From Escherichia phage Ec_Makalu_003, in the sequence record MN882349.1: a stretch of DNA of 64,000 nucleotides, one strand, 5' to 3'. Of the stretch, positions 7,146 through 61,784 are shown piece by piece (within the stretch, counting starts at the first letter, position 1; each line of letters starts with the position of its first letter). The position numbers were made by a program, and so were the translations under genes. The notes beneath the pieces were generated by a model. That model was not told the DNA's origin, did no database searches, and saw only the letters and a list, made by a program, of their open reading frames with translations.

Positions 7146-7153
7146 TATAAATA
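7146..7153 (+). promoter_or_regulatory. T4-type late promoter TATAAATA upstream of gene 51
   Basis: exact TATAAATA 20 nt before the gp51 ATG, in the divergent 26/51 intergenic region. Confidence 0.5.
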
Positions 7154-7173
7154 CCCGAAAGGGGGATTATACC

Positions 7174-41613: not shown

Positions 41614-41667
41614 TATTCCTTCTTTTGATTAATTTACGAGACTATTATACAGATTTAAATTTACTTG

Positions 41668-42348
41668 TCAACTATTTGTTTCGGCTTTTAATTGAGATAT
41701 TTCTTTACACTCTTTAACGACTTTAACAAATAATGCTCTTGCTTTTGCGGCGTCAATAACAAGTAGTTTCTTGTACGCCTTCATTTTAACACTATAAGTT
41801 TGCCAAATCAAGTCTTTGGCTACCTTGTCGTGTTCGTCGATTATATTTAGAAAGCTATCTAACAACATAAACGACTCAAACGATATAATCCGATTTTGCA
41901 GTAGTTTAAAGATACCGCTAGTTTCGGTTGCGGGATTGTATGTAATTAGCTCTTTAAGAGTAACCCCGCGTTTCTCGGAGAAGTATACCAGACTTTTAAC
42001 GTCATCGTCAAATCTTGTTGCTGCATCGGTTATCTTTCCTATGTATTCCATATAAAAGCCGTATGCGTCAACATCAGTGATTTCACCTACCCATGCATCG
42101 GTATTAGCTACCAGATTGCTTAGGAATAGGAAGTATAATTCTCTTAGATTGTACTTTTCCGCTAATTTTGCGAAATAATACTTATCTCTGCGTTTATTGA
42201 ATGCGGCATCAGACAACCGCATCCTCCAATTGTATTTTACGCAATCATAACGCCCGTTCATATGAGCTTTCATCATGCAATATAACATATACACAGATTT
42301 AGCATTAATTCGCATATCTGGATCTGGAGGAAGACGGTTTCTGATCAT
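41668..42348 (-). CDS. 59: helicase loader gp59
   Basis: KSVYMLYCMMKAHMNGRYDCVKYNWRMRLSDAAFNKRRDKYYF closely parallels T4 gp59. Confidence 0.85.
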   Translation of the reverse strand: MIRNRLPPDPDMRINAKSVYMLYCMMKAHMNGRYDCVKYNWRMRLSDAAFNKRRDKYYFAKLAEKYNLRELYFLFLSNLVANTDAWVGEITDVDAYGFYMEYIGKITDAATRFDDDVKSLVYFSEKRGVTLKELITYNPATETSGIFKLLQNRIISFESFMLLDSFLNIIDEHDKVAKDLIWQTYSVKMKAYKKLLVIDAAKARALFVKVVKECKEISQLKAETNS

Positions 42349-42357
42349 ACATACCCC

Positions 42358-42627
42358 TTAAATATCGAGAGTGTTGGTCGGTTCGTCGATCACTCCCTTC
42401 CTGAGCGTTCTATTTACTATACATTCTTGTGTGATCTTGTCAATAATGGACACCGGAATATACTTCTGATAGTGACCATATTCGATAGAGTTTTCCTCTA
42501 CAAACTGAGTTGTCGCTTCAAGATAAGTCAATCCCTCTTCAACAACCAGTTTTTCGATTGCAAGACCGTTTGCTGTTTTGTTCGCGGCTTTTACCGCATG
42601 TTCATTAAGCATTGAACACCCGATCAT
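42358..42627 (-). CDS. 33: late transcription co-activator gp33
   Basis: YLEATTQFVEENSI matches the T4 gp33 core. Confidence 0.75.
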   Translation of the reverse strand: MIGCSMLNEHAVKAANKTANGLAIEKLVVEEGLTYLEATTQFVEENSIEYGHYQKYIPVSIIDKITQECIVNRTLRKGVIDEPTNTLDI

Positions 42628-42880
42628 AGAGTTCTACCGCTTCGTCGCGTTCTGCTTCGAAGGTTTCGCGCTGTTGCTGGTGATATAGTTTAAACAGAAT
42701 ACCCCACATTTTACCATCTACGCCTAATTCTTCTTTAGCACGCTGTTTGATCTCTTTGATCTTATCGCCATATGCTTCTTGAATGGTTTTCTGATCGCTG
42801 GCTTCTTTAATCAGTTGTGCCAGTGTATTTCCGTGTACTGCTTCATCAAATACTACTTTTTCTTTTTTCTGTTCAGTCAT
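42605..42880 (-). CDS. dsbA: dsDNA-binding protein DsbA-like (by position)
   Basis: 91 aa ORF in the T4 dsbA slot. Confidence 0.55.
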   Translation of the reverse strand: MTEQKKEKVVFDEAVHGNTLAQLIKEASDQKTIQEAYGDKIKEIKQRAKEELGVDGKMWGILFKLYHQQQRETFEAERDEAVELYDRVFNA

Positions 42881-42884
42881 AATA

Positions 42885-43484
42885 TTAACCCTCTTTAGTC
42901 ATTAATTGAAAACCACGTTCAGCTTTTGAGATTTCGCTAGGACGTAAATCATCACCTACATATTCTAGCATCATTTCTCTGATAATGTCAAGTGCTTTTT
43001 CATCACCTGATTTTAACTCGAACTCAAGTTCATAATGAGCAGTGTCGCCCAATCCTTCGCCTACTTTGCCATAATAGAAAGTGTCTTTGCACATTTCCAC
43101 TATACCACAACCCATATCTAGAGTCAATGACTTGCGATATGTCATTACTTGCATTATTGTAGTGATATAGTCTGAGTTTACCTCTAGACTATCAATAAAA
43201 TGGACGAACTCATCCCAATTTGAAAATGTCGTTTCCTCGCGGTTGAATAGTCCAGATTCATTATCACCAATTTTGACCATGATCTCTGATTTTCTACAGT
43301 CAAGTCGTGCATAAATTCCTTTTTGACGTAGCGCATGGTCTTCGGTATCATAATAAAATTCGTGTTTTAATATGTTATCTCGATCTACGATATTATAACC
43401 GTCATACATTGCCACCCACAAATCACAGATGGTTTCGACGCCAATTTGTGAGTGTGCATAGTATTTTAACTCAAGTTCTTTCAT
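42885..43484 (-). CDS. CYTH-like (triphosphate tunnel metalloenzyme) protein
   Basis: N-terminal ELELKYYA (ExExK), YARLD, NREETTF, C-terminal HYELEFELK (ExE), about 200 aa. Confidence 0.55.
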   Translation of the reverse strand: MKELELKYYAHSQIGVETICDLWVAMYDGYNIVDRDNILKHEFYYDTEDHALRQKGIYARLDCRKSEIMVKIGDNESGLFNREETTFSNWDEFVHFIDSLEVNSDYITTIMQVMTYRKSLTLDMGCGIVEMCKDTFYYGKVGEGLGDTAHYELEFELKSGDEKALDIIREMMLEYVGDDLRPSEISKAERGFQLMTKEG

Positions 43485-43494
43485 GTGTCAACCC

Positions 43495-44442
43495 TTAGAA
43501 CTCACCAATTTTCTGCAACATTTTAACTAACGCATTTGTTACAAAATAGTTATAAATTTTACCGCGTGGTGCTGGTTTAGATTTTTCCCATGCTAACAAA
43601 ATTTCATATTCGATGTTATCAGGAATAAATTCAAAATCAATAAGTTCGCGGTTTTCGTCAAAGCGTTGTGCTTCTTCCTCTGTCATCAAAGACTTTGGAT
43701 CTTCGGCATCGAAAATTTGCTCTAACCATTTGGTTGCAATTGGTTTAGCTCGTTCCCCTTCCAGCCGTGAGATAATGAAATCACTACGGCACTTGATGGA
43801 AGCTACACCGTCTTTTGCGTCACCCTTAACACATTTTACCATAAGGTCTTTGTAAGGACTACCATATTTGCATTTCTTCCATGCTTTCTGTACTGGTGCC
43901 CACTGTTTCACGTTTTTGTATTTGTGCAACTGTGTGTAGTCACCATCGCCGGAGTTGATTAGCACCTGGCGACCTTCTACAGAAAACTTTTTAGTTAACA
44001 CAGCGATTATATCGTCTGCCTCAACTTTGTCAACCTTAATAACGTGATAAGGCATGTTCTCTTTAAACTCTTCGGTGATCTTATTGATCGCAGCAAAGAT
44101 CATCTCCCAATCACGCGGATCTGCGTCTCGCTTTTCCTTACGGTTACGCTTGTAATAAGGTGCGATATCACGTCGCCAGTAACCTTTGCTAGAGTCAAAG
44201 GCAAGTACCGTAATCGGGTATTGCTCTTTGAATTTTGTCATATTATAACGCATGGTGTCAAGGATAAGATGACGGATCATACCTTCATTAATCGGATCTT
44301 CCGGCTTAAATGTATGAGAGATAGTAGCAATCATAAGCTGCGACATATCAATCAAATGCACACCTTCCGGCAGTTTATCTTCTGGATCATCGAAGAAATC
44401 ATTAAGTGTAGCGGTAGTTTTTGTAAACGGGTTATACGTCAT
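43495..44442 (-). CDS. rnh: RNase H (5'-3' exonuclease, FEN-like)
   Basis: GYWRRD, ADDIIAV, SGDGDYTQLHKYKNVKQW, PRGKIYNYFV parallel T4 RNase H. Confidence 0.85.
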   Translation of the reverse strand: MTYNPFTKTTATLNDFFDDPEDKLPEGVHLIDMSQLMIATISHTFKPEDPINEGMIRHLILDTMRYNMTKFKEQYPITVLAFDSSKGYWRRDIAPYYKRNRKEKRDADPRDWEMIFAAINKITEEFKENMPYHVIKVDKVEADDIIAVLTKKFSVEGRQVLINSGDGDYTQLHKYKNVKQWAPVQKAWKKCKYGSPYKDLMVKCVKGDAKDGVASIKCRSDFIISRLEGERAKPIATKWLEQIFDAEDPKSLMTEEEAQRFDENRELIDFEFIPDNIEYEILLAWEKSKPAPRGKIYNYFVTNALVKMLQKIGEF

Positions 44443-44444
44443 AA

Positions 44445-44657
44445 TTAAGTTCTCTCCACTCTCACAACAACATATTCGCCAAACGAGTTAGATACTTCAC
44501 GGTCATACCCGTATTTCTCCATAACTCGCAGAATTGCATTGTTTAATTCAGCACGGAAATAATTGTAATCCTTATCTGGGATTCTGTCAACTATCCATTT
44601 TGCACCGTCTGACAAATCAACTTTAACCATAATATCATCCTCTTTTGTTTCTATCAA
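44445..44657 (-). CDS. hypothetical protein, 70 aa
   Basis: ORF abutting the rnh end. Confidence 0.45.
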   Translation of the reverse strand: MIETKEDDIMVKVDLSDGAKWIVDRIPDKDYNYFRAELNNAILRVMEKYGYDREVSNSFGEYVVVRVERT

Positions 44658-44666
44658 GCCTCATTT

Positions 44667-44674
44667 TATAAATA
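44667..44674 (+). promoter_or_regulatory. T4-type late promoter TATAAATA upstream of gene 34
   Basis: exact TATAAATA about 30 nt before the gp34 ATG, followed by AAGGAGA. Confidence 0.55.
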
Positions 44675-44702
44675 TGAACATACTATAAAAGGAGACCCAA
44701 TA

Positions 44703-47700
44703 ATGGCAGATTTTTCTCAACATTTCAAGGCCACATTTGGCTTTGACGCTGGTAATGAAAAGGTCGTCAATGTAGCATTGGCTGATAAGAATGTCAACAC
44801 CGATGCGGTCAACGTTGAATTTTTCAATTACCATAATGGTATTACTCAGTATGACACAACTCGCGGTTATGATCAATACGGAACTACAATCTATCAAAAC
44901 CGTCCGTATTATGCAAAAGAAGATATCACAAAGCCAGCAGGTGATTTTGACCCGACTAAATGGCAAGCACTGCGCACGGACCCACGTTGGGATTATATTG
45001 CAGCAACTTCCGGTGATACTCCTTTACAGTCTGGTGATTATATCGCAGCAGATGGTCAATTTGCAAACTTGACTTTCTCTATGCCATCTAAACCAGCAGA
45101 GGGGGACACTATAACAGTAAAAGATATCGGTGGCAAGTGTGGTGTTAACGAATTATCGTTCTTGAGTTCAGGACATGAGTTTTATCATAACGGTAATGTG
45201 TATAACCGAAAATGGTATTGCACTACCCCGTATGCAATGAACTATTTCATCTTTGTTCGTAATCGTTGGCATGTTTATCAGACAGGAACAGAGCCACGCG
45301 GTGTGTACGCACAGCCAGCGATTGATGCTATTCAAATGCAGAATGGTGATCAGGTATTTCGTCGTAGTTCTTTGGGTAATATTACCTTAGTGCTTCCTAA
45401 GTTTGCCAACAATGGCGACATGATCCAGACTACAGACCTTGACGGATTAACCGCAACCAACCACGTTACGGTTAAAGTTCATGAGCACGCAGAAGAACAA
45501 TCAATTGGCACGTCCGGTCTAAAAGAGATTATCGGTAAGCGTAGCGGTCATGGTGTATTCATCTTTGACAAGACGGAAAACTTATGGCGTTTGTGGGATG
45601 GTGATCAGTCTGTTCGTCTTAAACCGATCATCGATGACACTCGCTTGCAACCTAATAGCTATGTTGCCGTATTTGGTGATCGTGATGTTACTCTGACGCT
45701 GCCGACCAATGTCGAGCCGGGTGATCGTATTCAAGTTTCTATGCAGTATATGCACGGAAACCAGAATTGCCGTATTATCACCGCCACAGAGGATACAAAA
45801 ATCCTCATGTCGAAAAACATGGTTCAGTTTCCGAAGCGTAGCGAGTACCCATTCAACGGGACCGACACATGGAAGGAAGTGTCTGAATTGTCGTTCAATG
45901 CGGCTAGTGATTATGTACCTTATCTGGAGTTCTCTTATTCAGAAGGTGATGATGGTAAGAAACATTGGCTGGTAGCACACTCTCATCCGATCGTCGAACG
46001 AGTAGACCCTACTCGTAAAGATCGTGTTGGTGTCATTGCACTGGCTACCCAGACTGAAACGAATAAAAACCATGAAGAGAATCCTAGCGACGAAGTTGCC
46101 GTAACACCAAAAATGCTGGCTAATAAAACAGCCAACGAAACTCGACGCGGTATTGCTCGTATTGCTACTCAGGCGGAAACGCATCAAGATACTGGTTCCA
46201 GCTTCCTGGATGATGTTATCGTTACACCTAAAAAGTTAAATGACTGTGTTGCTACCGAAGCCCGTCGTGGTGTGATGGAAATTGCAACCCAGCACGAAAC
46301 CAATGAAGGTTTAGACGATACACGCGCTATTACTCCTAAGAAATTAGAAGAACGTCGCGCTTCCGAAGACCTCGCTGGTATTGCTGAAATTGTTCAGGTA
46401 GGCGGTCGTGCTGCCGCTCGACGTGGTGAAGCTGGTACAGGGATCTATAACATCAATGACCATGCTAAAATTGTTACACCACAAAACATCAACGAGGTCA
46501 AGGCGACCGAAACTTCCCGTGGTGTTGGCTATCTGGCAACTGACGCGGAAGTGCAAGGGGCTACAGAATCAACCCCGCAAGATGCTTTACTAATCACGAC
46601 TCGCACGCTAACGAAACGTACTGCTACCGAATCGCGCACTGGTATCGCTGAAATTGCAACTCAGGAAGAAACAAACTTAGGTCAAAGTGATAACCATATC
46701 ATCACGCCTAAAAAGCTGCATACTCGCCGTGCGACGGAAACTCTACACGGTTTAGCAGAAATTGCAACTCAGCCGGAATTTGACGCAGGTCTTGACGATG
46801 CTCGCATTTCTACCCCATTGAAGATTAAAACCTTCTTTGAGAATGCACAGCGTTTGAAAGTAGATCCGACTCAGGGGCTTAACCTTACTGGTGATTTGTG
46901 GCAAGGTATCATGATCAGCGGTCTGGACGCAACCGAAGACACAAAAGGTGTCGCTAAAGTTGCTACTACTCAGCTTACTGACGCTGGTCAAGATGATACT
47001 ACAATCATCACGCCTAAAAAGCTGCAAGGCAAAAAGGCCACCGAAGGTAAAGAAGGTATTATCCGAGTTGGTACTCAAGCCGAAACCGTGGCTGGTACAC
47101 TGGCTAATGTAGCAATTTCTCCGAAGAACTTCAAATATGTTGTTCAGACAGAGGATACATGGAAAGCAACCGAAGCTCGTCGTGGTTTCTTGAAAGTTGC
47201 TACTCAGGAAAACTGTTTTGTTGGTGACAATCTGCAAGGTTCTACTCAAGAACTAGGAAACTATCAGCATGACGGAATTGCTGTTACTCCGAAAGGATTA
47301 AACTACGCACTTGCTAATTTCTTGCCTAAGATGGCAACCGCTCAGAATAGTTTGAAATTGGGTAACGTAGAGGCCGCTAAATGGGCGCGTAGAGACATTG
47401 ACCAGACCATAGAGAGCAATTACACGTTTAATAAAAACGTTAACGTGAAGGGCGATTTAGAGTGCTTAAAATCAGGTTCCTTTGAAACTCTGTATGTGAC
47501 TAAGAACTCTACTGATGATCCGAGTAATGGTCATCTGGTGTTGGGTGAGCGTGGAGTTGACGGTCACACCGGAATTACTCTGCATGGCACAACCGCATCG
47601 GAAGGCATGAAAAACTCCTGGTCTATTATCGTTGGTGGTACTGGAACGGCGCAAGCAGTTAATAGTGGCGCTATCGCTTTCGGTCAAATCAATGATGGTG

Positions 47701-48443
47701 GAGTCGTCGAGCATTACGCCTTTGCTATGGAACACAATGGCGACGCGACAGCATATAGAGACTTTATTGCAGGTCGTAACCTGTATGCGAAACAAGGCGG
47801 TTTATACATTGTTGACCAGTCTAATCCGGCAATGACTCGTTCCCCAGATGGTATGCTGAATATCGGTCACGGTGGAAGTGTTAACATCAAGGCAGGTTCT
47901 CAAACGTTAACTACAGAGATCGCCGGACAGAAATATCAGATCGTACACGCAGGAAACGCCGACGAAGTTCTTAACCGTCGGTTTGTTAAGAATGCTGGCG
48001 ATACAATGGTCGGTAAGCTGACTATGGATAATGCGCCTATTGTTTCTGTTAAACATGAAGCTAGCGCGGCAACCGCTCCGGCAATTGGTAACATCGGTTT
48101 CTGGAATATGCGAGTTACTACCCAGAACATCAAAGAAACTTATCCAGAGAAGAAAAACGGTACTCTGATGCAATGGGGTACTGACGCGGACGGGCTTACC
48201 CAGCTTTGGTCCCCTGATGGTACTCATAAACATTATATCCGTTCCGGTACTGGTGGTCAATGGACCGCATGGGGTGAAATTTACACCAAACAGAATAAGC
48301 CTACCGCTCAGGAAATCGGGGCAGTAGTTGCAGAAGGTGGTTTAATGAACTCTATGACGGTGCGTGACTGGATCAAGGTTGGTAATGTTAAAATCATCGC
48401 CAATAATCTGACTCGTACCGTAGATTTTATCTGGGAAGACTAA
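44703..48443 (+). CDS. 34: long tail fiber proximal subunit gp34
   Basis: 1246 aa; repeated IATQxET...TPKKL fibre repeats in the central region. Confidence 0.85.
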   Translation: MADFSQHFKATFGFDAGNEKVVNVALADKNVNTDAVNVEFFNYHNGITQYDTTRGYDQYGTTIYQNRPYYAKEDITKPAGDFDPTKWQALRTDPRWDYIAATSGDTPLQSGDYIAADGQFANLTFSMPSKPAEGDTITVKDIGGKCGVNELSFLSSGHEFYHNGNVYNRKWYCTTPYAMNYFIFVRNRWHVYQTGTEPRGVYAQPAIDAIQMQNGDQVFRRSSLGNITLVLPKFANNGDMIQTTDLDGLTATNHVTVKVHEHAEEQSIGTSGLKEIIGKRSGHGVFIFDKTENLWRLWDGDQSVRLKPIIDDTRLQPNSYVAVFGDRDVTLTLPTNVEPGDRIQVSMQYMHGNQNCRIITATEDTKILMSKNMVQFPKRSEYPFNGTDTWKEVSELSFNAASDYVPYLEFSYSEGDDGKKHWLVAHSHPIVERVDPTRKDRVGVIALATQTETNKNHEENPSDEVAVTPKMLANKTANETRRGIARIATQAETHQDTGSSFLDDVIVTPKKLNDCVATEARRGVMEIATQHETNEGLDDTRAITPKKLEERRASEDLAGIAEIVQVGGRAAARRGEAGTGIYNINDHAKIVTPQNINEVKATETSRGVGYLATDAEVQGATESTPQDALLITTRTLTKRTATESRTGIAEIATQEETNLGQSDNHIITPKKLHTRRATETLHGLAEIATQPEFDAGLDDARISTPLKIKTFFENAQRLKVDPTQGLNLTGDLWQGIMISGLDATEDTKGVAKVATTQLTDAGQDDTTIITPKKLQGKKATEGKEGIIRVGTQAETVAGTLANVAISPKNFKYVVQTEDTWKATEARRGFLKVATQENCFVGDNLQGSTQELGNYQHDGIAVTPKGLNYALANFLPKMATAQNSLKLGNVEAAKWARRDIDQTIESNYTFNKNVNVKGDLECLKSGSFETLYVTKNSTDDPSNGHLVLGERGVDGHTGITLHGTTASEGMKNSWSIIVGGTGTAQAVNSGAIAFGQINDGGVVEHYAFAMEHNGDATAYRDFIAGRNLYAKQGGLYIVDQSNPAMTRSPDGMLNIGHGGSVNIKAGSQTLTTEIAGQKYQIVHAGNADEVLNRRFVKNAGDTMVGKLTMDNAPIVSVKHEASAATAPAIGNIGFWNMRVTTQNIKETYPEKKNGTLMQWGTDADGLTQLWSPDGTHKHYIRSGTGGQWTAWGEIYTKQNKPTAQEIGAVVAEGGLMNSMTVRDWIKVGNVKIIANNLTRTVDFIWED

Positions 48444-48448
48444 TTAAA

Positions 48449-48464
48449 GGGGGCGAAAGCCCCC
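48449..48464 (+). other. GC hairpin with GAAA tetraloop between genes 34 and 35
   Basis: gggggcgaaagccccc; no T-run, so likely an RNA structure rather than a strong terminator. Confidence 0.4.
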
Positions 48465-48476
48465 TATGGGGTTATT

Positions 48477-49616
48477 ATGACACAAGATATAGAATTACGC
48501 AACACTGGAATTAGGTTTGCGCATTTCGATGAGGACTCCGCGACATTTACCAGCATTTCAGAAAACAACTCTGTGATGTATAAGCTGGAAGTGCGCGGAT
48601 CTAATGCGGATTCTACCAAACCAGCAAGGATTAGATTTAATGGAGTGGAGATCGTTGGCACTGGCTATGAAAATGGCCTAAATTTTAAAGTTCTTACTCC
48701 AACTGGACAACTACACGAAGAAAAGGTATTCTATGGTCGCGGTGCTGTTTTGGCAATGCGTGATTATCTTTCTTTGCTGAAAGGTGACTATATCATTGCG
48801 ATGGCAACGCATGGAGAATTGTTTGCAGATCCGGTAAGTGATGTTGTATTTTCTAAGCTGGGATCTGTATCATTCCCGAATCACATTTTGTTACAGCAAA
48901 TGCCTCGTGTATCCTATGCAGCAATTTATTCTACGAAAATGGGTAAAATTGTGTGCGAAGGTATGCAAGCGACCCACGGGGAAGGACAAGATTCATCTAT
49001 ACAAATTGAGAAAGTCTATGATACTATAGATGATCTTGCTATAACAGGAACACCACAACGATTTTTAGATTATCCGGTTGAGTATGTTAGCGAAGATGCC
49101 GAACATTTCGAGCTAATACAATGGCCTCATGATGAGATCAGCTCACCACTTGAAGATTTTAACATAAAGGCAGGTGACAAACTATCAATATCTTTTGAAT
49201 TGTTCCGTGATAGTGCCGCAGCCGCAGCCAACGTAACAGCGCGTTTCTATCACAACTACTTCACCGATGGACAATATCAAACTGGTGTTCGATACAATGC
49301 CAGCAAAAAAGACCAATGGGAAAAGTTTGAAGCCGTCTATACCGTACCGGAAGGAGTTGATAGTGTAGTAACTGGTTGTATCAGATATCCAACCAACTCC
49401 AATGAAGGTATTGTTAAAATTAGAAACATACTAATAACGCCGATCAGTGGAGTCGTCAAAACTACTGGTCCTACTTCATTTGGCGTTAATGGTGTTAGAA
49501 CAACTCATATTCAGGATAACGGTGATTTTACTAACCCTGTAATGAGTCTTCTTAAACTACCTAGAGATAATAAACACATCACATCCAACAACTTTAAAGA
49601 GTTCGATGTTGATTAA
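48477..49616 (+). CDS. 35: long tail fiber hinge protein gp35 (by position and size)
   Basis: 379 aa after gp34. Confidence 0.7.
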   Translation: MTQDIELRNTGIRFAHFDEDSATFTSISENNSVMYKLEVRGSNADSTKPARIRFNGVEIVGTGYENGLNFKVLTPTGQLHEEKVFYGRGAVLAMRDYLSLLKGDYIIAMATHGELFADPVSDVVFSKLGSVSFPNHILLQQMPRVSYAAIYSTKMGKIVCEGMQATHGEGQDSSIQIEKVYDTIDDLAITGTPQRFLDYPVEYVSEDAEHFELIQWPHDEISSPLEDFNIKAGDKLSISFELFRDSAAAAANVTARFYHNYFTDGQYQTGVRYNASKKDQWEKFEAVYTVPEGVDSVVTGCIRYPTNSNEGIVKIRNILITPISGVVKTTGPTSFGVNGVRTTHIQDNGDFTNPVMSLLKLPRDNKHITSNNFKEFDVD

Positions 49617-49627
49617 CATTTTTAACA

Positions 49628-49656
49628 AGCCGATCCATGTGGTCGGCTTTATTTTT
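49628..49656 (+). terminator. rho-independent terminator after gene 35
   Basis: agccgatcc..ggtcggct hairpin followed by TTTATTTTT. Confidence 0.55.
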
Positions 49657-49777
49657 ATACAGTTGGTTAAATTGTAACCAAAACGAAGAAAGATCTTTAG
49701 AATAATAGAAAATTTGTTTCGGTTAAAAATTAGACAGTGCCGTAGGCACGTCGCGAAGCGATATTTTGTTAACATTC

Positions 49778-49785
49778 TATAAATA
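49778..49785 (+). promoter_or_regulatory. T4-type late promoter TATAAATA upstream of gene 36
   Basis: exact TATAAATA about 35 nt before the gp36 ATG. Confidence 0.55.
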
Positions 49786-49818
49786 CTCGGAACTATAACT
49801 AATTTTTGAGGTTACTTT

Positions 49819-51309
49819 ATGGCAGATTTGAAATATGGATCTACTGTAGGTGGATCTCCCATTTGGACGCAAGGAAACTTGACGATCCAGCCAGCGGGGG
49901 ATCAGCTTTTCTACAAAGGTCATAAAATCTATACCGCTTTTGATAGACCTTCGGCTACCGATTTTGATGCTGTTAGTGCATCCGAAGGTGGCACATTTCA
50001 AAAGCAAGTTCATTTCGAGGAAGGTTTAAGCGTAGGTAGCGCATCGGCTGGAGAAACCAAAAAGAATGGTATCTTTAAAGGTCAGAGTGACGCTGCTAAT
50101 TTTGACGGCGTAAGCTGGGGTTTGCATTCATGGAAGTCAATCGGCTTTGTTAATGCCCGTGATGGCGTTATTATGGCGTATATTGACACCACAACGGGCG
50201 AATTTAAGTCTAAAGGGACTATCGAAGGGACAACCATTAAAGACACAGGTCAACGCGTCTATAGCCCTGTTAATAAACCAACGAATAATGATTTAGATTT
50301 GGTGTCTCGTCGCGGTGATACCCTCACAGGAACATATAATTTAAACACTGTCACTGTTAAACTATCGGTTGATTCGAAATTAATTGCAAGGGAACGTGAT
50401 TTAATTAATTTTGATGCGACTAAGATCTATTATGGTAACGTTCTTGATACGTTGGTATTCCGAAGTAAAGATGAGCCTACCATTTTTGTTAATGGCAAAG
50501 AAGGTCGTTTTTATCACACCAACAATAAACCAACTAAAGCCGATGTGGGACTAGGCAATGTCACCAATGATGCACAGGTTAAACGTGCTGGTGATATTAT
50601 GGAAGGTAACTTGCAAGCGCCTAGAATGTTGGCGACAAACGATCCTGCTGGTCCGAATGAATTGGTTCGTTTGAGCTACTTTGAGAGAAAATCAATGGTA
50701 GCAAATCCAACCATCATAGGAAACGTTGATTGGAACACTCTTATTAATCGCGGTATCTATCGTGTGGAAAATGCGGGATCAGGTACTAATAAACCGTCTG
50801 ATAGCTATTATAACGGCGTTTTGATGGTATACCGACCAGAAGATGCGGTCGGTACTCGTCGAATTGTTCAGGTGTATTATCCTGAATCTATTGACCATCC
50901 GATGTGCTGGCGTTCTTGTTCTAATGAATCGTGGACTGCATGGAACTATGTAGATCACCGTAAATTAGCCGATATTCGCTATGTTAACGTAACTGGTGAT
51001 ACCATGACAGGACCGTTAACTGTTCCGGCTGCAAATGGCGTTAGAACGGCTAGAGGTGCATATAATGGTGATAACTACTATGCTGGGTTAAATAGTGCCG
51101 ATGGCACGGCTATGATTCACCGTATCAGCGATATTAAAGCCACCGAAAAATTGGGGATCACCCACGACTCAAAGGTCGTGTTTTTCCGTTCTAGAAACAA
51201 TACTCAAACCGTGGATCGCTATCAGCTTTATCATGAAGGTAATAAACCTACTCCGGCTGATGTTGGTGCGGTTCCACTTAATGCGGTGATTGATTTTGGT
51301 ACTTTCTAA
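49819..51309 (+). CDS. 36: long tail fiber distal connector gp36 (enlarged)
   Basis: 496 aa in the gp36 slot, versus about 221 aa in T4. Confidence 0.6.
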   Translation: MADLKYGSTVGGSPIWTQGNLTIQPAGDQLFYKGHKIYTAFDRPSATDFDAVSASEGGTFQKQVHFEEGLSVGSASAGETKKNGIFKGQSDAANFDGVSWGLHSWKSIGFVNARDGVIMAYIDTTTGEFKSKGTIEGTTIKDTGQRVYSPVNKPTNNDLDLVSRRGDTLTGTYNLNTVTVKLSVDSKLIARERDLINFDATKIYYGNVLDTLVFRSKDEPTIFVNGKEGRFYHTNNKPTKADVGLGNVTNDAQVKRAGDIMEGNLQAPRMLATNDPAGPNELVRLSYFERKSMVANPTIIGNVDWNTLINRGIYRVENAGSGTNKPSDSYYNGVLMVYRPEDAVGTRRIVQVYYPESIDHPMCWRSCSNESWTAWNYVDHRKLADIRYVNVTGDTMTGPLTVPAANGVRTARGAYNGDNYYAGLNSADGTAMIHRISDIKATEKLGITHDSKVVFFRSRNNTQTVDRYQLYHEGNKPTPADVGAVPLNAVIDFGTF

Positions 51310-51314
51310 TTTTA

Positions 51315-51337
51315 GCGGGGATTCTCTCCCCGCTTTT
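51315..51337 (+). terminator. terminator-like hairpin after gene 36
   Basis: gcgggga-ttctc-tccccgc followed by TTTT. Confidence 0.5.
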
Positions 51338-51379
51338 CTAAATAATATTATTCTAATAACCGTTTAAGGATTTTATAAA

Positions 51380-54322
51380 ATGGCAGATTTAAGCAGAATC
51401 CAATTTAAACGTACTAGCACTAAAGGCCGTCGACCTGATGCTGGTACGATGAATCCGGGGGAATTGGCAATCAACCTTGCGGATCAATATCTTCTTACTA
51501 AAAATGATTCCGGCGCTATTATCAATTTAAGTTGTCCTCCGGTTTATGACCGTGATGTTACAATGGCGGGTAAGGTTAAAGGAAATAATTATATTTTAAG
51601 TAAAACCGCCAATTATCTGGAAGACCAGACAGCGAGAGATCTTAACTACTTTGGTGCTTTCCGTACCAATAGTCTAGATGGACTCATGGATCTAACCCTT
51701 AACGTTCCTCACTCTTCCGGTAAAGCGCATGGTCGAGGATTTACTTTCCGTTATGGGACTGGCGGATCTCGTGTTGAAACCTATGGTTTTGATGTTCAGG
51801 GACAAAAAGCATTTAGTTATAAAATGTATCATGAAGGGGATAAACCGACTCCCTCAGAATTGAACGTTTATAGCAAACAAGAAGTTGACCGTATGTTTGT
51901 TAAAACCGTTAAACTTGCTACAGTTCCTGTTGATATCGTTGACGGTTATTTTAAATTAGCAACTGCATTGATTCCGCAAAACGGTCGTAGTGTATTTTTC
52001 CGTATTCATGGTGGTAACGGATATAACGTTACTGCATACGATCAAGTTGATATTGTAGAAATTGTTATTCGCAGTGGAAATAATCGTCCTAAAGGTGTTA
52101 ACGTTATTGCATACCGCCGAAATACAAACAAAGCATTTGATGTTTTGGCTGTTAATACTTCTGGTGATAACTATGATATCTACGTGAAATATCAGCGTTA
52201 CACTGATAACGTTATTGTTGAATTTGGTAAAAGTGTTGATGTTGATCTGGTGGTTCATGACGTTCCAGACTTTGTTGTTGATCGTCCTGTTGGTGATAAT
52301 GTTATTGGCGGTCGCGCGGTAACTCTTTTTAACACCGAAAACAAACGAGGTGTGTTGAGTTTTGACGATAACACACAAAATAGTTATGATATTGTTCACT
52401 TGAGTAATGATAAAGGTACTGGAAGGAAATATATTCGTAAATTCCGTAGTAACTATAATGAAATGATCTGGCATGAGACGGTTCAAGGTTCCAGTTATCG
52501 ACTCGCCACGGGTAGTACAGATGCTCAGGAAATTATAACTATTGAATCTAGTAGCTCAATTGCTGGAACTCATAAAGGTAATATTATTTCTGGTCGTATG
52601 CTGTTAAATGGCGGATCTAATGCCATTACACTACGCCGACCTGCTGGTCAGTCTAATCATATCGCTTTTCAGGATAACCGCACCGGAGATATTACTCGTC
52701 AAGGATGGATCGGTTATGCAAACGCTGATACTAACGTTTTTGAATGGTATAGTGATGTAGGCGGTAGTTCTATTCGTCAACATATTGACGGCCAGATAGA
52801 ACTTCAAACTGGCAATATGAAGCGAGTTTATACTAACGCTCAATTCATCTCAATGAATAGCGACGCCTACCGTATGCTCTATGGTAATTATGGTGCATTC
52901 TGGCGTAATGACGGCGTTAAAGTTTATCTTCTTTCTACTGCCGAAAATGATAAATTGGGCGGATGGAATACTTATCGTCCATTCATTTATGATTTAACTT
53001 CCGGTAACGTTCAATTAGGTGGTGATGGTAACGAAGATGCATTAACTTTAGAATGTGCTTCTCGTGCCGCTCGCTTTAGTAATGACGTTTACATTAAGAA
53101 AGGGCATTTGACTTTCGATGCTGGTCGATTAAATTCTCGTGATTACTTCCGGTTTAACCATTGGGGTGATAGCAATAACGCCCGTGATAACATCCTACAG
53201 CTTGACGATAGCAAAGGTGCACACTTCACCACTGAACGTACTTTAGCAACTGGTGCGATTAGAACTAAATTCTTCGGTGATTTGGAAGCTGCTGGTCAAA
53301 TTAAATGGGGTAAAGGGACCGCCGCATCTACGTTTACTCTACGTGTATGGGGTAACGATAGTCGTAAACAAATATTTGAATGCGGCGATGAAAGCGGGTG
53401 GCATTGGTATACCCAACGCGCTGGCGGTCCAGATACTTCTGCAATTGAGTTTGCCATCAACGGTACTGTTAAGCCTCAAGCAATTCACACTGGCGGTAAT
53501 ATCACTATCAACGGTGCTGATATTGAGTTTAAACGCACTGGCAATAAGCACATCTGGTTTAGAGACCCGAACGGTTTAGAGTTAGGCTTGATGTACTGCG
53601 ATGATGCTGGTGCTATTCGCTTCCGTGGTCAGAAACAAGCCCAGGCGTGGAAATTTGCAGATAAAATGATCCAGTTGGAATCTGGCACTGTATCCGGTGG
53701 CGGTAATGGCCTGATTCGTGGTGAAGTTGCTGGCGGTAGTTGGGCTAGCTGGCGTGACCGTGCTGCTGGCCTTATGGTTGGGTGTCCTCAATCCGTTGAT
53801 TCGGCACATAACGTATGGAAAGCGACGCATTGGGGTAAATATCATATCGCAGCAATGGGTGTACATGTTCCTAGTGGTACGATTACCAATGCTTTAGCTC
53901 GCCTAAACGTTCATGACGCTAACTTTGACTTTAGCGCCTCCGGTGACCTGTCGGTAGGGCGTAATGGTTCGTTTAACGATGTTTATATTCGTTCTGATGC
54001 TCGCCTTAAAATCAACAAAGAAGAGTATAAAGAGAATGCCACCGATAAAGTTAATCGCTTGACGGTATACACCTATGACAAGGTTAAATCTTTAACCGAC
54101 CGCACTGTCATTGCTCATGAAGTTGGTATTATTGCTCAGGATCTTGAAAAAGAATTGCCGGAAGCAGTAACAACTTCTAAGGTCGGCGATCCTGATAAGC
54201 CAGAAGAGATCTTAACAATTTCTAACTCTGCTGTCAACGCTCTTTTAATTAAGGCGTTTCAGGAAATGAGCGAAGAATTGAAAGTCGTTAAAGCTGAACT
54301 AGCGGAACTTAAAAAGAATTAA
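51380..54322 (+). CDS. 37: long tail fiber distal subunit gp37 with C-terminal intramolecular chaperone domain
   Basis: 980 aa; C-terminal YIRSDARLKINKEEY...TVYTYDK resembles the S74 chaperone/autoprotease domain of phage fibres. Confidence 0.75.
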   Translation: MADLSRIQFKRTSTKGRRPDAGTMNPGELAINLADQYLLTKNDSGAIINLSCPPVYDRDVTMAGKVKGNNYILSKTANYLEDQTARDLNYFGAFRTNSLDGLMDLTLNVPHSSGKAHGRGFTFRYGTGGSRVETYGFDVQGQKAFSYKMYHEGDKPTPSELNVYSKQEVDRMFVKTVKLATVPVDIVDGYFKLATALIPQNGRSVFFRIHGGNGYNVTAYDQVDIVEIVIRSGNNRPKGVNVIAYRRNTNKAFDVLAVNTSGDNYDIYVKYQRYTDNVIVEFGKSVDVDLVVHDVPDFVVDRPVGDNVIGGRAVTLFNTENKRGVLSFDDNTQNSYDIVHLSNDKGTGRKYIRKFRSNYNEMIWHETVQGSSYRLATGSTDAQEIITIESSSSIAGTHKGNIISGRMLLNGGSNAITLRRPAGQSNHIAFQDNRTGDITRQGWIGYANADTNVFEWYSDVGGSSIRQHIDGQIELQTGNMKRVYTNAQFISMNSDAYRMLYGNYGAFWRNDGVKVYLLSTAENDKLGGWNTYRPFIYDLTSGNVQLGGDGNEDALTLECASRAARFSNDVYIKKGHLTFDAGRLNSRDYFRFNHWGDSNNARDNILQLDDSKGAHFTTERTLATGAIRTKFFGDLEAAGQIKWGKGTAASTFTLRVWGNDSRKQIFECGDESGWHWYTQRAGGPDTSAIEFAINGTVKPQAIHTGGNITINGADIEFKRTGNKHIWFRDPNGLELGLMYCDDAGAIRFRGQKQAQAWKFADKMIQLESGTVSGGGNGLIRGEVAGGSWASWRDRAAGLMVGCPQSVDSAHNVWKATHWGKYHIAAMGVHVPSGTITNALARLNVHDANFDFSASGDLSVGRNGSFNDVYIRSDARLKINKEEYKENATDKVNRLTVYTYDKVKSLTDRTVIAHEVGIIAQDLEKELPEAVTTSKVGDPDKPEEILTISNSAVNALLIKAFQEMSEELKVVKAELAELKKN

Positions 54323-54362
54323 GGAAACTCCCAGGGAAGGGAACTACTAAGGAGAAACGGCT

Positions 54363-54602
54363 ATGGTCTATAATATCGTCATTGGTGCTTTGTCTAATTT
54401 CGGAATGAAATTATTGTCAAAGTTAATTAGTGAAAAGATGCTCACTAAAATTTTCTTCTATTGCGCTCGTCGTCTTGCGGCTTATACCAATACGCCAATT
54501 GATGATCGTTTTGTGGAAGAACTTTATAAGGAGTTTAATAAAGATCAGTCAGAAGATAGTAACGAGCAAGATAAACCTAGTGATAGTCAACTACCTAAAT
54601 AA
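54363..54602 (+). CDS. hypothetical protein, 79 aa, in the gene 38 position
   Basis: hydrophobic N-terminal segment, acidic C-terminus; too small to be a gp38 adhesin. Confidence 0.4.
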   Translation: MVYNIVIGALSNFGMKLLSKLISEKMLTKIFFYCARRLAAYTNTPIDDRFVEELYKEFNKDQSEDSNEQDKPSDSQLPK

Positions 54603-54635
54603 GAGTACACTGTCATAGTTATCTTAGGGCATTAT

Positions 54636-55292
54636 ATGCAAGTTTCTGAAAAAGGGAAAGACTTTGCTATCTCAAATGTCCTGCGCGCTATTTTCACAAC
54701 TAAAAGCACGGAGTTGCTCGTACTTCGTGTTTTTGCTGCCGTCGTGTTGTCCATATTAGCATTTGTCGTTTATAGTAAAAACGAGTTATTCGCGCTTTAT
54801 AAAGAGACTCGTTATGAGACTTATGCTCACATTCTCCAGGTAGAGAAAGACCGCAATTTTGATAATGCAGCACAGGAGCAGTTACAGATAGTTCATGTAT
54901 CGGCTGATGCCGATTTTTCTGCTGTTTTTAGTTTTCGTCCGAAAAACCTAAACTATTTTGTTGATTTGGTGGCATATGAAGGAAAGCTACCGCATACAAT
55001 CGATGAAAAAAATTTAGGCGGATTCCCTATCAATAAAACGAGTGAAGAATATCGTAGGCATCTTTTAGGTAAATCATATTTTACCGATAAAGATTTCCAG
55101 TATATTCCATCAAGAGAAAAGAAATTAGAGAATATCGATATAGGTTTCATGTATTCTTGTCCTATATTCAATCTCGATAATGTCTATTCTGGTAGTATCG
55201 CCATTTCATGGAAGAATAAACCGGATATTGACATTGAGAATTTAGATACTCTTTGCAATCAATCTGCCAGAATCCTCGGAAGGATTAGATAA
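54636..55292 (+). CDS. t: holin
   Basis: 218 aa; single N-terminal TMD; LQIVHVSADADFSAVFSFRPKNLNYFVDLVAYEGKLP and MYSCPIFNLDNVY parallel T4 holin T. Confidence 0.85.
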   Translation: MQVSEKGKDFAISNVLRAIFTTKSTELLVLRVFAAVVLSILAFVVYSKNELFALYKETRYETYAHILQVEKDRNFDNAAQEQLQIVHVSADADFSAVFSFRPKNLNYFVDLVAYEGKLPHTIDEKNLGGFPINKTSEEYRRHLLGKSYFTDKDFQYIPSREKKLENIDIGFMYSCPIFNLDNVYSGSIAISWKNKPDIDIENLDTLCNQSARILGRIR

Positions 55293-55298
55293 ATTAAA

Positions 55299-55329
55299 GG
55301 GGAAGCCTTTCGGCCTCCCCTTCTTTTTT
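55299..55329 (+). terminator. rho-independent terminator after t
   Basis: ggggaagcctttcggcctcccc hairpin followed by TTCTTTTTTA. Confidence 0.6.
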
Positions 55330-55576
55330 ATTGGCGCATAGAAGCCCCTGAATCGCATTTTGACGCTGTATGATGAAAACAGGTAGCGTACCAGTCATCG
55401 GCTTGTTTGTCTTCGTCAGAAAACGCGTAATTTCGTTGTATGCCGTTTTCTACTTTGACCAGTGCAATAGCTGTTTCTGGAAGATCAATTAATCTGACAA
55501 AATCACCATCTTCCCACTCTACACGAGCAATATCATAGCCCATCTCAAAGTATACAATCGCTTGTTCTAGTTTCAT
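55328..55576 (-). CDS. hypothetical protein, 82 aa
   Basis: ORF in the t-52 variable block. Confidence 0.45.
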   Translation of the reverse strand: MKLEQAIVYFEMGYDIARVEWEDGDFVRLIDLPETAIALVKVENGIQRNYAFSDEDKQADDWYATCFHHTASKCDSGASMRQ

Positions 55577-55905
55577 TTTGGAAACTTCCCGTAAATGTTT
55601 TCTGCCAGCTTACGTGCATCGATGATAATGTCATTCATGCTATGCCCGTAGTGTTCAGCCATTGACATAATACAATCAACAAAGAAATTATATCGGCAAC
55701 GATTCAAGATTTGCTCTTTGCTGTAAACTTCATACTTGACGGTCGCGTGTACTTTCTCGATTGCCTTAATCGCTGTATTGACTTCACTGATAATGGTTTT
55801 CGCATTGTATGCACCACGACGGATCAGGATTTGAGTCAATTCTCTTGCAATATCTTGCATTTCTTCATATTCATGTTCAAGCATAATTAACCTCTCAAAA
55901 TACAA
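55573..55905 (-). CDS. hypothetical protein, 110 aa
   Basis: ATGA-type coupling with neighbours. Confidence 0.45.
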   Translation of the reverse strand: MYFERLIMLEHEYEEMQDIARELTQILIRRGAYNAKTIISEVNTAIKAIEKVHATVKYEVYSKEQILNRCRYNFFVDCIMSMAEHYGHSMNDIIIDARKLAENIYGKFPK

Positions 55906-57133: not shown

Positions 57134-57892
57134 TTACTTGCAAACGTATTGATCTACATCAATTGCGCCACCGAATGTAGGATGACGTTTTTCAAATCGA
57201 ATAGTTCCGTCGTTTGGTTCGAAAACGGAGTATTCATATAGATCTTTCTTGCCAACATTCTTATAAAACCCGCCTTTAGTCATAACGGTTTCTTGTACGT
57301 TTGCTTTGTGTACATTGTATTCATCAATGTACACAAAATCAACCATCTTCCCATTTTTAATAGTTACTTTAAGATCCCCTGGCTGGTTTCCATATTTTGC
57401 ATACAGTGGAGATTCTTTAATTTTGGTGGAAATTCCATCTTTCATACTCCACTCATAACGAACGGTGCATTGATAGGTAAAAGTTTCGACCTTCGGTTCT
57501 TCCACCACTTTTGCTTCCTGTTTCGGTTGTTCTTCTTCAACCTTCGCAGAAGTCTCTGAATCGCTTTCTGACGCTGTTTCTTCTTTGGGTAATACATTCA
57601 TCAAGTTTTGGATTTGAGCGTTGTATACAGCCTCAAGTGGCTGAATCTGCCCTATATTGATCATTGTATCACGAACAGTTTTATTCCAGTTGCGTTGCTC
57701 TTGTTTCAGAGACGGATCAATCTTAACAGCCTTAACATATACTTCATGAAGTTTAGAATCAAGTGCGGAGATTGACTCGTTAGCACAAATAAACTTCTCT
57801 GATTTGGTGGTAGCCTTAGTGCAATCAAAGGACGCAGCATTAGCACCGATGGCAGTAGCAGAAAGAAAGATAGCAGCGATAATGTTTTTCAT
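57134..57892 (-). CDS. secreted protein with DUF1311 / LprI-like N-terminal domain
   Basis: signal peptide MKNIIAAIFLSATAIGANA then CTKATTKSEKFICANESISALDSKLHEVY...QRNW. Confidence 0.55.
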   Translation of the reverse strand: MKNIIAAIFLSATAIGANAASFDCTKATTKSEKFICANESISALDSKLHEVYVKAVKIDPSLKQEQRNWNKTVRDTMINIGQIQPLEAVYNAQIQNLMNVLPKEETASESDSETSAKVEEEQPKQEAKVVEEPKVETFTYQCTVRYEWSMKDGISTKIKESPLYAKYGNQPGDLKVTIKNGKMVDFVYIDEYNVHKANVQETVMTKGGFYKNVGKKDLYEYSVFEPNDGTIRFEKRHPTFGGAIDVDQYVCK

Positions 57893-60408: not shown

Positions 60409-61784
60409 CCCTTCTTAAGTTCTTTAAGATCTTTCTTATATTCCTTCATTGCGGTCGTCTTTGTCCAATACTCATATTCACTATGATGTTTATCGGCATC
60501 TTTGACCAGTCGATCATACTCTTCTTGGGTAACGCTGTACAATGGCATAGAAACTAGCTTATCGGCGTATGGACGCAGTTTTTCATGTCCATTGATGGAT
60601 TGCATTACCTCGGCCTTTTTCTTTCCCTGTAGCTCGATTTCGCCCTTAATTACGCGATCGATAAATTCTGCTTTAGCCATTGCATAATTGTATGCTTCCA
60701 GTGTTTCGGCTTGCATCAATTCAATGCGTTTATCTACATAGCCTAATCGGATTTCGACGAATCGACGGATCAGATCGCTCGCTTTCTCGAATACTTCAAC
60801 TAAACCACGTTCGTTAACTACTACGATATTTTGGGCTACTAACTGCGTTAGTTTAAAATCCTTCATGATTTGCTCATGTCGAGCGGATTCATCTTCGCTT
60901 TTGAAATAATCGCGTTTCAGTGTTACTTCAAATCTGAATCCATCCTTAGAGCAACGGTCATTATACGATACAATCAGATCTTTTTCTTCCAGTGCATCCA
61001 GTACCGCTACATATTCTTCACGGTCGAACTTATAAGGAACTTCTGATATTGTCAGTTTAGTCTTGCCGTTTAGTTCATATGTACCCTCAAGAATCACACC
61101 ATCGCGATCATCTCGCGGGATAACTTTACCCGTGAATTTCGGGAATTGAACAGTAGGTTCTTTATCCAGTTTTCCGGCAAGTGCTAGCTCTGTGCATTCG
61201 ATGAGGCTTTCCAGTGAATGCGGTAAAATGTCAGTTTTATACCCTGTAGCAATACCACTAATACCATTAGCCAATACCATTGGTACAACTGGCAAGTAGA
61301 ATGCTGGCGGGATGTGTTCCAGATCTTCGTGCTTAGGTGCGCAATTCATATCTTTATAGATTTTAAAGAAGTTTTCATGCACACGAGCAAAGATATAACG
61401 TGCTGCCCCCGCTTTCTGGACTAAACGCGATCCAAAGTTACCTTGACCGTCAAGCAGCGGAGTATTATTGCTCCATGTATTCGCCATGAGCGATCCGGCT
61501 TCTACGGCATTAGTTTCCCCGTGATGATAACCTAACTCAGCAACACCAGATCCAATATCTGCCATCTTACGGAATTTTTTACGGTCGCCTTTACTCTTTT
61601 GCAAAGCACATTCCATAACAAAGCGTTGCACTGGTTTAAGCCCATCTACTAATTGAGGAATCCCGCGTTCCTCGGCAGAATAGATCGCATATTCCTTAGC
61701 TTCATTATGTACAATGCTTTCAAGGCTACGGTAAGTAATTGTGTTTATAATTTGACTAATTTTATCCATCTTCACCTCATACAC
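60405..61784 (-). CDS. 52: DNA topoisomerase II medium subunit gp52
   Basis: GyrA-type motifs GLKPVQRF and ARY (active-site Tyr); 459 aa. Confidence 0.85.
   Translation of the reverse strand: MYEVKMDKISQIINTITYRSLESIVHNEAKEYAIYSAEERGIPQLVDGLKPVQRFVMECALQKSKGDRKKFRKMADIGSGVAELGYHHGETNAVEAGSLMANTWSNNTPLLDGQGNFGSRLVQKAGAARYIFARVHENFFKIYKDMNCAPKHEDLEHIPPAFYLPVVPMVLANGISGIATGYKTDILPHSLESLIECTELALAGKLDKEPTVQFPKFTGKVIPRDDRDGVILEGTYELNGKTKLTISEVPYKFDREEYVAVLDALEEKDLIVSYNDRCSKDGFRFEVTLKRDYFKSEDESARHEQIMKDFKLTQLVAQNIVVVNERGLVEVFEKASDLIRRFVEIRLGYVDKRIELMQAETLEAYNYAMAKAEFIDRVIKGEIELQGKKKAEVMQSINGHEKLRPYADKLVSMPLYSVTQEEYDRLVKDADKHHSEYEYWTKTTAMKEYKKDLKELKKG

Follow-up and report, generated by a model that had tools for sequence, protein, structure and literature searches.

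The long tail fibre locus of Escherichia phage Ec_Makalu_003 raises the question of how a fibre tip is built, and how it recognises its receptor, when the distal subunit gp37 ends in a chaperone-like domain and the slot usually taken by g38 holds only a short open reading frame. The analysis covered a window of 64 kb (the whole stretch of DNA under study, 64,000 nucleotides; MN882349.1). The window belongs to the Krischvirus genome type (RB49/Phi1-like T4 relatives), being collinear with Krischvirus genomes at 95–98% identity. It matched Phi1 from position 99085 to near the end of that genome at 164270 and ran collinearly with the final 65 kb of Phi1, with positions 1–8000 corresponding to Phi1 99085–107108 by megablast. 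By homology, the locus is the long tail fibre locus of a Krischvirus.

All genes of the locus are on the forward strand. The locus begins with g34 (44703–48443), which encodes a proximal half-fibre of 1246 aa that is 98.7% identical to Phi1 gp34; a motif search placed the late-promoter motif TATAAATA ahead of it at 44667. The hinge connector gene g35 (48477–49616; 379 aa; phrog_1154, E 9.7e-127) is followed by a terminator-like hairpin at 49627–49649. An exact copy of the T4-type late promoter motif TATAAATA is present at 49778–49785 (forward strand), 5′ of g36 (49819–51309), the gene for an enlarged distal connector of 496 aa. The g37 ORF (51380–54322; 980 aa), ORF79 (54363–54602) and t (54636–55292) follow. 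The last of these encodes a T-type holin of 218 aa (PF11031, E 4.5e-61) with 48.5% identity to T4 t, and a terminator lies 3′ of it at 55296–55323. In the terminator scan, strong hairpins (9 and 12 pairs) were confined to sites following g35 and t; weaker terminator-like matches were found within g36, g37 and t and just past the g36 stop codon, and no terminator-like site was detected in the g37–t interval. Given the promoter motif 5′ of g36 and the restriction of strong hairpins to the ends of g35 and t, g36, g37, ORF79 and t are probably read as one late transcription unit. RB49, Phi1 and Ec_Makalu_001 share the same gene order and lengths (gp36, 496 aa; gp37, 980 aa; ORF, 79 aa; t, 218 aa), and the DNA of the locus is 90–97% identical among them. 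Only allelic differences from these phages were noted, comprising scattered gp37 substitutions that fall mostly in residues 101–150, 401–450 and 701–750.

Translation of positions 53993–54322 gave 109 residues and a stop codon (SDARLKINKEEYKEN...AELAELKKN*), from codon 872 onward of the gp37 ORF, which places the segment at the extreme C-terminus of the distal fibre subunit. The initial annotation had proposed that these residues form an S74-like intramolecular chaperone (IMC) with an SDxRxK motif, and the Pfam search, the profile match to Salmonella phage S16 and the predicted fold all bore this out. PF13884 (Peptidase_S74) matched gp37 residues 872–931 over the full profile (1–58/58) with 45 bits and an E value of 1.3e-11, above the curated cut-off of 22 bits and starting exactly at S872; the C-terminal fragment alone scored 49.7 bits (E 4.6e-13). 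The match is far beyond chance. The motif S872-D-A-R-L-K877 has its serine at the start of the IMC and its lysine five residues on, and Ser872 and Lys877 are the putative catalytic pair. SDxRLK was retained in all of the aligned homologues covering the site; the search with the IMC fragment yielded just 22 proteins, many of which were short or incomplete. Whole gp37 matched only gp34-like shaft domains among PDB sequences; S16 gp37 was reached with the C-terminal fragment and its profile (6f45_A, E 1.8e-11), and the profile also matched the ICA domain of MyRF (7dc3). An AF2 model of the IMC had pLDDT values of 83–90 and included a C-terminal helix at model residues 122–152, in line with the IMC fold, in which a mixed alpha/beta region with beta-hairpins precedes a long C-terminal helix that builds the trimeric coiled coil. 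Its top Foldseek matches were exclusively IMC/ICA structures (7dc3, E 9e-6; 3gw6; 3gud), and the domain is thus predicted to share its fold with the IMC domains of MyRF, endosialidase and GA-1, whose structures are solved.

The predicted scissile bond, Arg871|Ser872 (53990–53995), would divide the ORF into a mature distal half-fibre of residues 1–871 (51380–53992; phrog_1699, E 9e-198), ending in the strand ...FNDVYIR, and the released IMC. The junction DVYIR|SD aligns to the S16 site, DLNVS^SDRRIKK, and to the predicted site of the Tequatrovirus fPS phages, DVYIR^SDGRLKI. The pre-cut residues thus differ from those of S16; the same DVYIR sequence is the predicted docking strand for gp38 in the fPS phages, and it is conserved across homologues. 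The spacing of S872 and K877 is that of S1264 and K1269 in T5, where pb1 is cut at the Thr1263|Ser1264 bond and Lys1269 is the partner residue.

Several known systems carry the same domain. S16 gp37–gp38 (6F45), of the T2/T6 type, has the same C-terminal IMC of ~110 residues from SDxRxK, which is autocleaved after trimerisation, and a monomeric gp38 then caps the fibre. The Krischvirus locus differs from S16 in that g38 is not next to g37, a matter of gene order and not of mechanism, and in the sequence of the shaft up to its last five residues. T5 pb1 and the T5-like LtfB fibres (SSP1_096; PDB 4UW7/4UW8) have the same S74 IMC, with the serine and the lysine at +5, although the T5 junction reads NWVSS|SD. 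K1F endoNF and GA-1 gp12 (3GW6, 3GUD) and the MyRF ICA (7DC3) share the predicted fold and the motif at only 11–22% identity, and by analogy the same proposed Ser–Lys autoproteolysis, dependent on a correct trimer, may apply. Their client domains differ: a tailspike beta-helix in the endosialidase, a neck appendage in GA-1 and a eukaryotic transcription factor in MyRF. Autoproteolytic release of the IMC after trimerisation has been demonstrated for the homologues S16 gp37 and T5 pb1, and proteolytic processing has been reported for T2/T6 gp37 (PMC3157838). By analogy with the homologues S16, T2, T5 and K1F, and from RB49 genetics, cleavage of Arg871–Ser872 and docking of gp38 on the gp37 tip would both be expected here.

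The gp38 position had been described as holding only a 79-aa ORF, and this was confirmed at 54363–54602. No other sizeable ORF in the interval from the g37 stop codon (54322) to t is preceded by a good ribosome-binding site, which for ORF79 is AAGGAG; a 62-aa ORF with a GTG start overlaps ORF79 in a different frame (54430–54618). ORF79 is conserved, being 96–100% identical among the Krischviruses listed, and falls into phrog_402 (E 5.2e-20), a family of unknown function. Its best Pfam match (E 0.063) fell below the cut-off and was not significant, and NCBIfam gave no match. ORF79 is not a gp38. A role as a fibre helper was considered and is disfavoured because its homologues adjoin the holin or endolysin in three unrelated phage groups; an association of ORF79 with the lysis genes is more likely.

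The further claim that gene 38 is absent held for the canonical slot and for a gp38 of the T4 type, and did not hold for the genome type, in which relatives carry a T2-type g38 outside the span of the window. No tblastn match to gp38 or gp57A was found within the 64-kb window, and a tblastn search with T4 gp38 found nothing in either the window or the retrieved parts of Phi1, a combination that covers the full extent of the Krischvirus genome type. T4 has the same gp34–gp35–gp36–gp37 layout, homologous gp36 and gp37 N-termini and the same downstream holin. However, T4 gp37, whose C-terminal needle is itself the adhesin, lacks an IMC and depends on a gp38 chaperone of 183 aa, for which there is no homologue here. 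In Phi1, the gene for a T2-type gp38 adhesin lies at 44989–45765 (PF05268, E 1.8e-70; PF21721, E 3.9e-18), so that both Pfam gp38 domains are matched, as in the T2/S16 type; in Ec_Makalu_001 it lies at 45079–45858. The gene is present at this conserved distant locus in Phi1, RB49, Ec_Makalu_001 and all of the other close relatives listed, about 105 kb from g37 and on the other strand. Phi1 and Ec_Makalu_001 do not differ in gp38 residues 1–107, among them W7 and W20; the variation is in the glycine-rich C-terminal part. The genes for gp57A (Phi1 60895–61155; Ec_Makalu_001 60733–60993) are about 90 kb away, likewise outside the window. The suggestion that fibre folding is independent of gp57A was not borne out, as the relatives encode it. 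Judging from these gene positions, g38 of the Krischvirus genome type is displaced and not lost, and we infer from the close relatives that Ec_Makalu_003 carries both g38 and g57A.

The subunit adjoining gp37 is unusual in length. The 496 aa of gp36 compare with 221 aa in T4 (AF158101), as had been stated, and gp36 here is more than twice as long as in S16, T2 and T6. Residues 1–171 resemble T4 gp36 (T4 residues 1–184 aligned, 37% identity), T4 residues 172–215 align to residues 251–294, and phrog_16472 matched over the full length; there was no match to PDB sequences or NCBIfam. Residues 172–496 are predicted to form an extra shaft and a knob-like domain. The AF2 model of this part was poor (mean pLDDT 55), with confidence only at ~301–381 (pLDDT 72–85), and the Foldseek matches of the knob were weak (TM ~0.2; the R-pyocin fibre knobs 6cl5/6cl6 and a phi812 baseplate chain). 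The likeness to pyocin and phage fibre knobs is therefore suggestive only. In gp37, the N-terminal 71 aa resemble T4 gp37, beyond which only one chance-level stretch of 34 residues aligned (E 0.032), and PF21446 (Gp34_trimer) matched residues 439–537. No internal duplication was detected by BLASTP in gp36 or gp37, where only a short Y..NKPT..D motif is repeated. The T5-like fibre SSP1_096 has a distal domain homologous to gp37 residues 769–871; the alignment spans 215 aa, with the IMC included, at 40% identity. While gp37 as a whole is 95.4% identical to that of Ec_Makalu_001, residues 751–871 are almost invariant between the window and Phi1; gp36 is 98.4% identical to that of Phi1 and 100% identical to that of Ec_Makalu_001.

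The published literature and public annotations already contain the self-cleaving IMC of RB49-type gp37, a displaced g38 and a small ORF where g38 would be. The literature on these RB49 features reportedly starts with the RB49 genome study of 2002. All three had been described by 2011 (PMC3157838) and were restated in 2022 (PMC9569957). In RB49, the g38 adhesin is displaced with a small ORF in its slot (PMC3157838), the C-terminal chaperone of gp37 self-cleaves and gp38 then caps the fibre (PMC9569957), and gp38 carries the host-range mutations E230K and Y231S (PMC9569957). Cleavage of the IMC followed by capping with gp38 is the T2/T6/S16 architecture, and is stated explicitly for RB49 (PMC9569957, PMC3157838). 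The locus illustrates, for readings limited to a window, that a gene lacking at its canonical position may still be present elsewhere in the genome. In phage engineering, the junction R871|S872, the strand DVYIR and the fact that a distant gene determines host range are of practical use, though already known.

It is very probable that the gp37 tip is of the T2/S16 type, with trimerisation, cleavage of the IMC and capping by a gp38 encoded at a distance. The initial annotation had considered the tip to be unlike that of T4 or T2; the first part stands, and the second does not, as IMC cleavage and a gp38 cap are T2/S16-like. In the proposed mechanism, the 109-residue IMC (872–980) would set three gp37 chains in register, with folding from the C-terminus. 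Once a correct trimer has formed, Ser872, activated by Lys877, would cut Arg871–Ser872 and the chaperone trimer would depart, baring a flat tip of DVYIR strands. One gp38 adhesin may then dock on this tip through its N-terminal tryptophan-bearing domain and provide the receptor specificity. The general fibre chaperone gp57A, encoded elsewhere, would still be on hand, the enlarged gp36 would contribute its extra shaft and knob-like domain to the distal half-fibre, and ORF79 would merely fill the old g38 slot.

One alternative is that the S74 domain is a non-cleaving relic, retained on the mature gp37 fibre. It draws on the fact that proteolysis has been observed directly on homologues, while for gp37 here the case is one of sequence. 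However, conservation extends to the Ser/Lys pair and the entire motif, the full Pfam profile is matched with an intact predicted fold, S16 and T5 fibres are cleaved and T2/T6 gp37 is processed (PMC3157838), and an uncleaved IMC would block the face on which gp38 docks, which leaves this reading scarcely credible.

The two other alternatives concern the site of receptor binding. One builds on the absence of gp38 proposed in the initial annotation: the gp37 tip would bind the receptor itself after IMC cleavage, like the T5 L-shaped fibre. The lack of gp38-like sequence in the window, the unrelated 79-aa ORF in the g38 slot and the likeness of residues 769–871 to the SSP1_096 distal domain are all in keeping with such a tip. 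We nevertheless consider it very improbable, given the full-length gp38 at a conserved locus in every close relative listed, the conserved DVYIR docking strand and the RB49 host-range mutations in gp38 (PMC9569957); the near-invariance of residues 751–871 is also more in keeping with a docking platform than with a receptor-binding site under rapid evolution. A dual mode of recognition, in which gp38 caps the fibre and gp37 769–871 or the gp36 knob also binds a surface glycan, would give each RB49-type fibre two receptor-binding sites and could explain the use of several unrelated O antigens, whose recognition by the small gp38 was 'counter-intuitive' to the authors of PMC9569957. The homology of 769–871 to a T5-like lateral fibre tip and the weak similarity of the gp36 knob to R-pyocin knobs point the same way. 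Yet gp36 and gp37 751–871 are highly conserved across Krischviruses of differing host range, the reported host-range differences and selected mutations fall in gp38 (PMC9569957), and the gp36 model is of low confidence; dual recognition is very improbable.

The tip capped by gp38 remains the preferred reading. To our knowledge, T5-type lateral fibres work without a separate adhesin, their tips binding the receptor directly with no gp38 cap. As a counterpoint to the gp38-cap model, a T5-like lateral fibre has a distal domain homologous to the ~100 residues that precede the IMC in gp37.

The fibre locus lies on the plus strand, and PHROGs and Pfam identified the ORFs for gp34 (44703-48443, 1246 aa), gp35 (48477-49616, 379 aa), gp36 (49819-51309, 496 aa), gp37 (51380-54322, 980 aa) and the T holin, t (54636-55292, 218 aa). 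A 79-aa ORF (ORF79; 54363-54602, plus strand) lies between g37 and t and belongs to phrog_402, a family of unknown function. The locus shares 97.4% identity with its closest relative, Escherichia phage Ec_Makalu_001 (Makalu_001), 95.7% with Phi1 and approximately 90% with RB49, all three of which belong to Krischvirus. Positions 1-8000 correspond to Phi1 99085-107108 and positions 40814-55686 to Phi1 141082-155949, so that the whole window runs collinear with the final ~65 kb of a genome of the Phi1 type.

The S74-like intramolecular chaperone (IMC) domain proposed at the gp37 C-terminus was confirmed by concordant evidence from Pfam, the PDB, profile searching, structure prediction and motif conservation. 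The translation of 53993-54322 (SDARLKINKEEYKEN...AELAELKKN*) represents residues 872-980. The Pfam search suggested in the initial annotation placed the entire PF13884 profile (Peptidase_S74, 'chaperone of endosialidase') on residues 872-931, with a score of 45 bits (E 1.3e-11; cut-off 22 bits). Against the PDB, the last 220 residues matched Salmonella phage S16 gp37 (6f45_A, E 7.9e-5), with RSDARLK aligned over SSDRRIK. A profile built from the window sequence and 18 database homologues strengthened this match to E 1.8e-11 and also found the intramolecular-chaperone autoprocessing (ICA) domain of MyRF (7dc3). The AlphaFold2 model of the last 153 residues had a pLDDT of 83-90 across the chaperone part, with a 30-residue helix at the end, and its best Foldseek matches in the PDB were all solved IMC/ICA domains: 7dc3 (E 9e-6), 3gw6 (K1F endosialidase) and 3gud (GA-1 gp12). 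The i/i+5 spacing of Ser872 and Lys877 is that of T5 pb1, in which Ser1264 is scissile and Lys1269 activating (PMC4690869); all aligned homologues that span the site carry the SDxRLK motif. The start originally assigned to the domain, 53993, coincides exactly with the predicted scissile serine, Ser872.

In S16, the last 113 residues of gp37 are autocleaved at DLNVS^SDRRIKK; the homologous site in the Tequatrovirus fPS phages is DVYIR^SDGRLKI, where the DVYIR strands are proposed to form a flat tip into which gp38 tryptophans insert (PMC7917993). The window junction reads ...FNDVYIR^SDARLKI, and FNDVYIR^SD is kept across homologues even where the upstream domains differ. By analogy, we infer that gp37 is cleaved between Arg871 and Ser872, creating a docking face for gp38, which would make the tip one of the T2/S16 kind. 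The suggestion of a tip unlike T4 or T2 therefore stands with respect to T4 and not with respect to T2. Elsewhere in gp37, residues 439-537 (52694-52990) form a trimerisation domain of the gp34 type (PF21446, E 6.8e-26), and residues 647-713 (53318-53518) resemble the C-terminal region of T4 gp34 whose structure is known from 4uxe/5nxf; this again points to shuffling of modules between fibre proteins.

The initial annotation was correct that the gp38 slot holds only a small ORF, ORF79, which is not gp38; its conclusion that gene 38 is absent was not upheld. Phi1 encodes a 'gp38 distal long tail fiber adhesin' at 44989-45765 (minus strand) with hits to the two Pfam families of gp38 (PF05268, E 1.8e-70; PF21721, E 3.9e-18), and gp57A at 60895-61155. 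The Makalu_001 counterparts lie at 45079-45858 and 60733-60993. Neither Phi1 protein had a tblastn match within the 64-kb window; with Phi1 gp38 as the query, a full-length gp38 was found in every listed Krischvirus. The gp38 proteins of Phi1 and Makalu_001 share all of their first 107 residues, W7 and W20 among them, and diverge mainly in the glycine-rich C-terminal part. The unrelated T4 gp38 chaperone (183 aa) had no homologue in the window or the Phi1 parts searched, which together span the genome type. Judged by sequence comparison, g38 is evidently displaced, not absent, in this genome type. Across the 135 nt 5' of Phi1 g38 (locus L002, 45766-45900) there is no TATAAATA late-promoter motif, and a terminator-like hairpin, GCCCCTTAATTGGGGCTTTTCTT, lies just before the ribosome-binding site; this stretch gives no clear indication of how the displaced gene would be expressed late, together with g37.

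A T5-like gp37 tip that functions without gp38 would fit the homology of gp37 769-871 to the distal domain of SSP1_096, a lateral fibre protein of the T5-like phage SSP1 (40% identity over 215 aa, IMC included). All of the listed relatives carry g38, the docking strand is kept across homologues, and gp37 751-871 hardly varies between the window and Phi1, which together make this reading unlikely. A dual-site model, in which gp38 acts alongside a second glycan-binding module, is a low-probability speculation. The homology of gp37 769-871 (53684-53992) and the IMC to the C-terminus of the second SSP1 lateral fibre protein (SSP1 locus L009, 2055-4127) points to a tip-plus-IMC cassette that appears to be common to T4-like and T5-like fibres. 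The IMC and displaced g38 are an ordinary property of RB49-like phages and are already in the literature: in RB49, the g38 adhesin is displaced with a small ORF in its place (Trojet et al., PMC3157838), the gp37 C-terminus is a self-cleaving chaperone followed by a gp38 cap, and the host-range mutations E230K and Y231S map to gp38 (Efimov et al., PMC9569957). Overall, the observations of the initial annotation held, and its interpretation held in part.

The gp36 protein is enlarged as described (496 aa versus 221 aa in T4). T4 gp36 residues 1-184 align with window residues 1-171 (37% identity) and T4 172-215 with 251-294; in other T-even gp36 proteins, the match is confined to the first ~171 residues. 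At least 80% of the gp36 length was covered in 71 phage records, those listed being Krischvirus or close relatives, and the same length is annotated in Phi1. Metagenomic full-length homologues are 492-508 aa with 42-57% identity. No internal duplication was found in gp36. The model of residues 172-496 was poor overall (pLDDT 55), with a single confident globular block at ~301-381; R-pyocin fibre knobs and a phi812 baseplate chain were weakly similar, which suggests that the extra part may be more shaft plus a knob. Nothing links the gp36 length mechanistically to the IMC. The motif Y..[ND][KR]P[TS]..D occurs in gp36 at residues 42, 152, 236 and 475; as Y-x-x-x-[ND]-[KR]-P-[TS]-x-x-[DE], found four times in gp36, once in gp37 (154) and once near the gp34 C-terminus (1198), it may mark module boundaries in fibre proteins.

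The TATAAATA motif is present at 44667 (5' of g34) and 49778 (5' of g36), and two strong terminator-like hairpins lie after g35 (49627-49649) and after t (55296-55323). Weaker matches to the terminator pattern fall within the genes g36, g37 and t and immediately past the g36 stop, with none between g37 and t. With a promoter motif before g36, g36-g37-ORF79-t thus looks like a single late unit. ORF79 lies directly upstream of the T holin gene, behind an AAGGAG ribosome-binding site, and its conservation among the Krischviruses listed is 96-100%. Members of the phrog_402 family have in common ~40 hydrophobic or amphipathic residues at the N-terminus, a charged tail and the conserved motif T-x-T-x-x-D-D-x-F. 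In FelixO1-like phages, homologues are flanked by a tail-fibre gene and a holin different from the T holin; in Vibrio phage 1.036.O, the homologue lies directly 3' of a GH108 endolysin. As a lysis gene is the common neighbour, this gene association suggests that ORF79 may be a member of the lysis cassette and not a fibre-assembly gene. In local coordinates, homologues were located at 2992-3189, 2992-3186 and 3004-3213 of loci L004, L005 and L006, respectively. A 252-aa ORF at 57134-57892 (minus strand) has a signal-peptide-like N-terminus and a Pfam match to the LprI lysozyme-inhibitor domain (PF07007) at residues 24-76 (26.3 bits; cut-off 22); its Phi1 counterpart is annotated as a hypothetical protein (ORF262).
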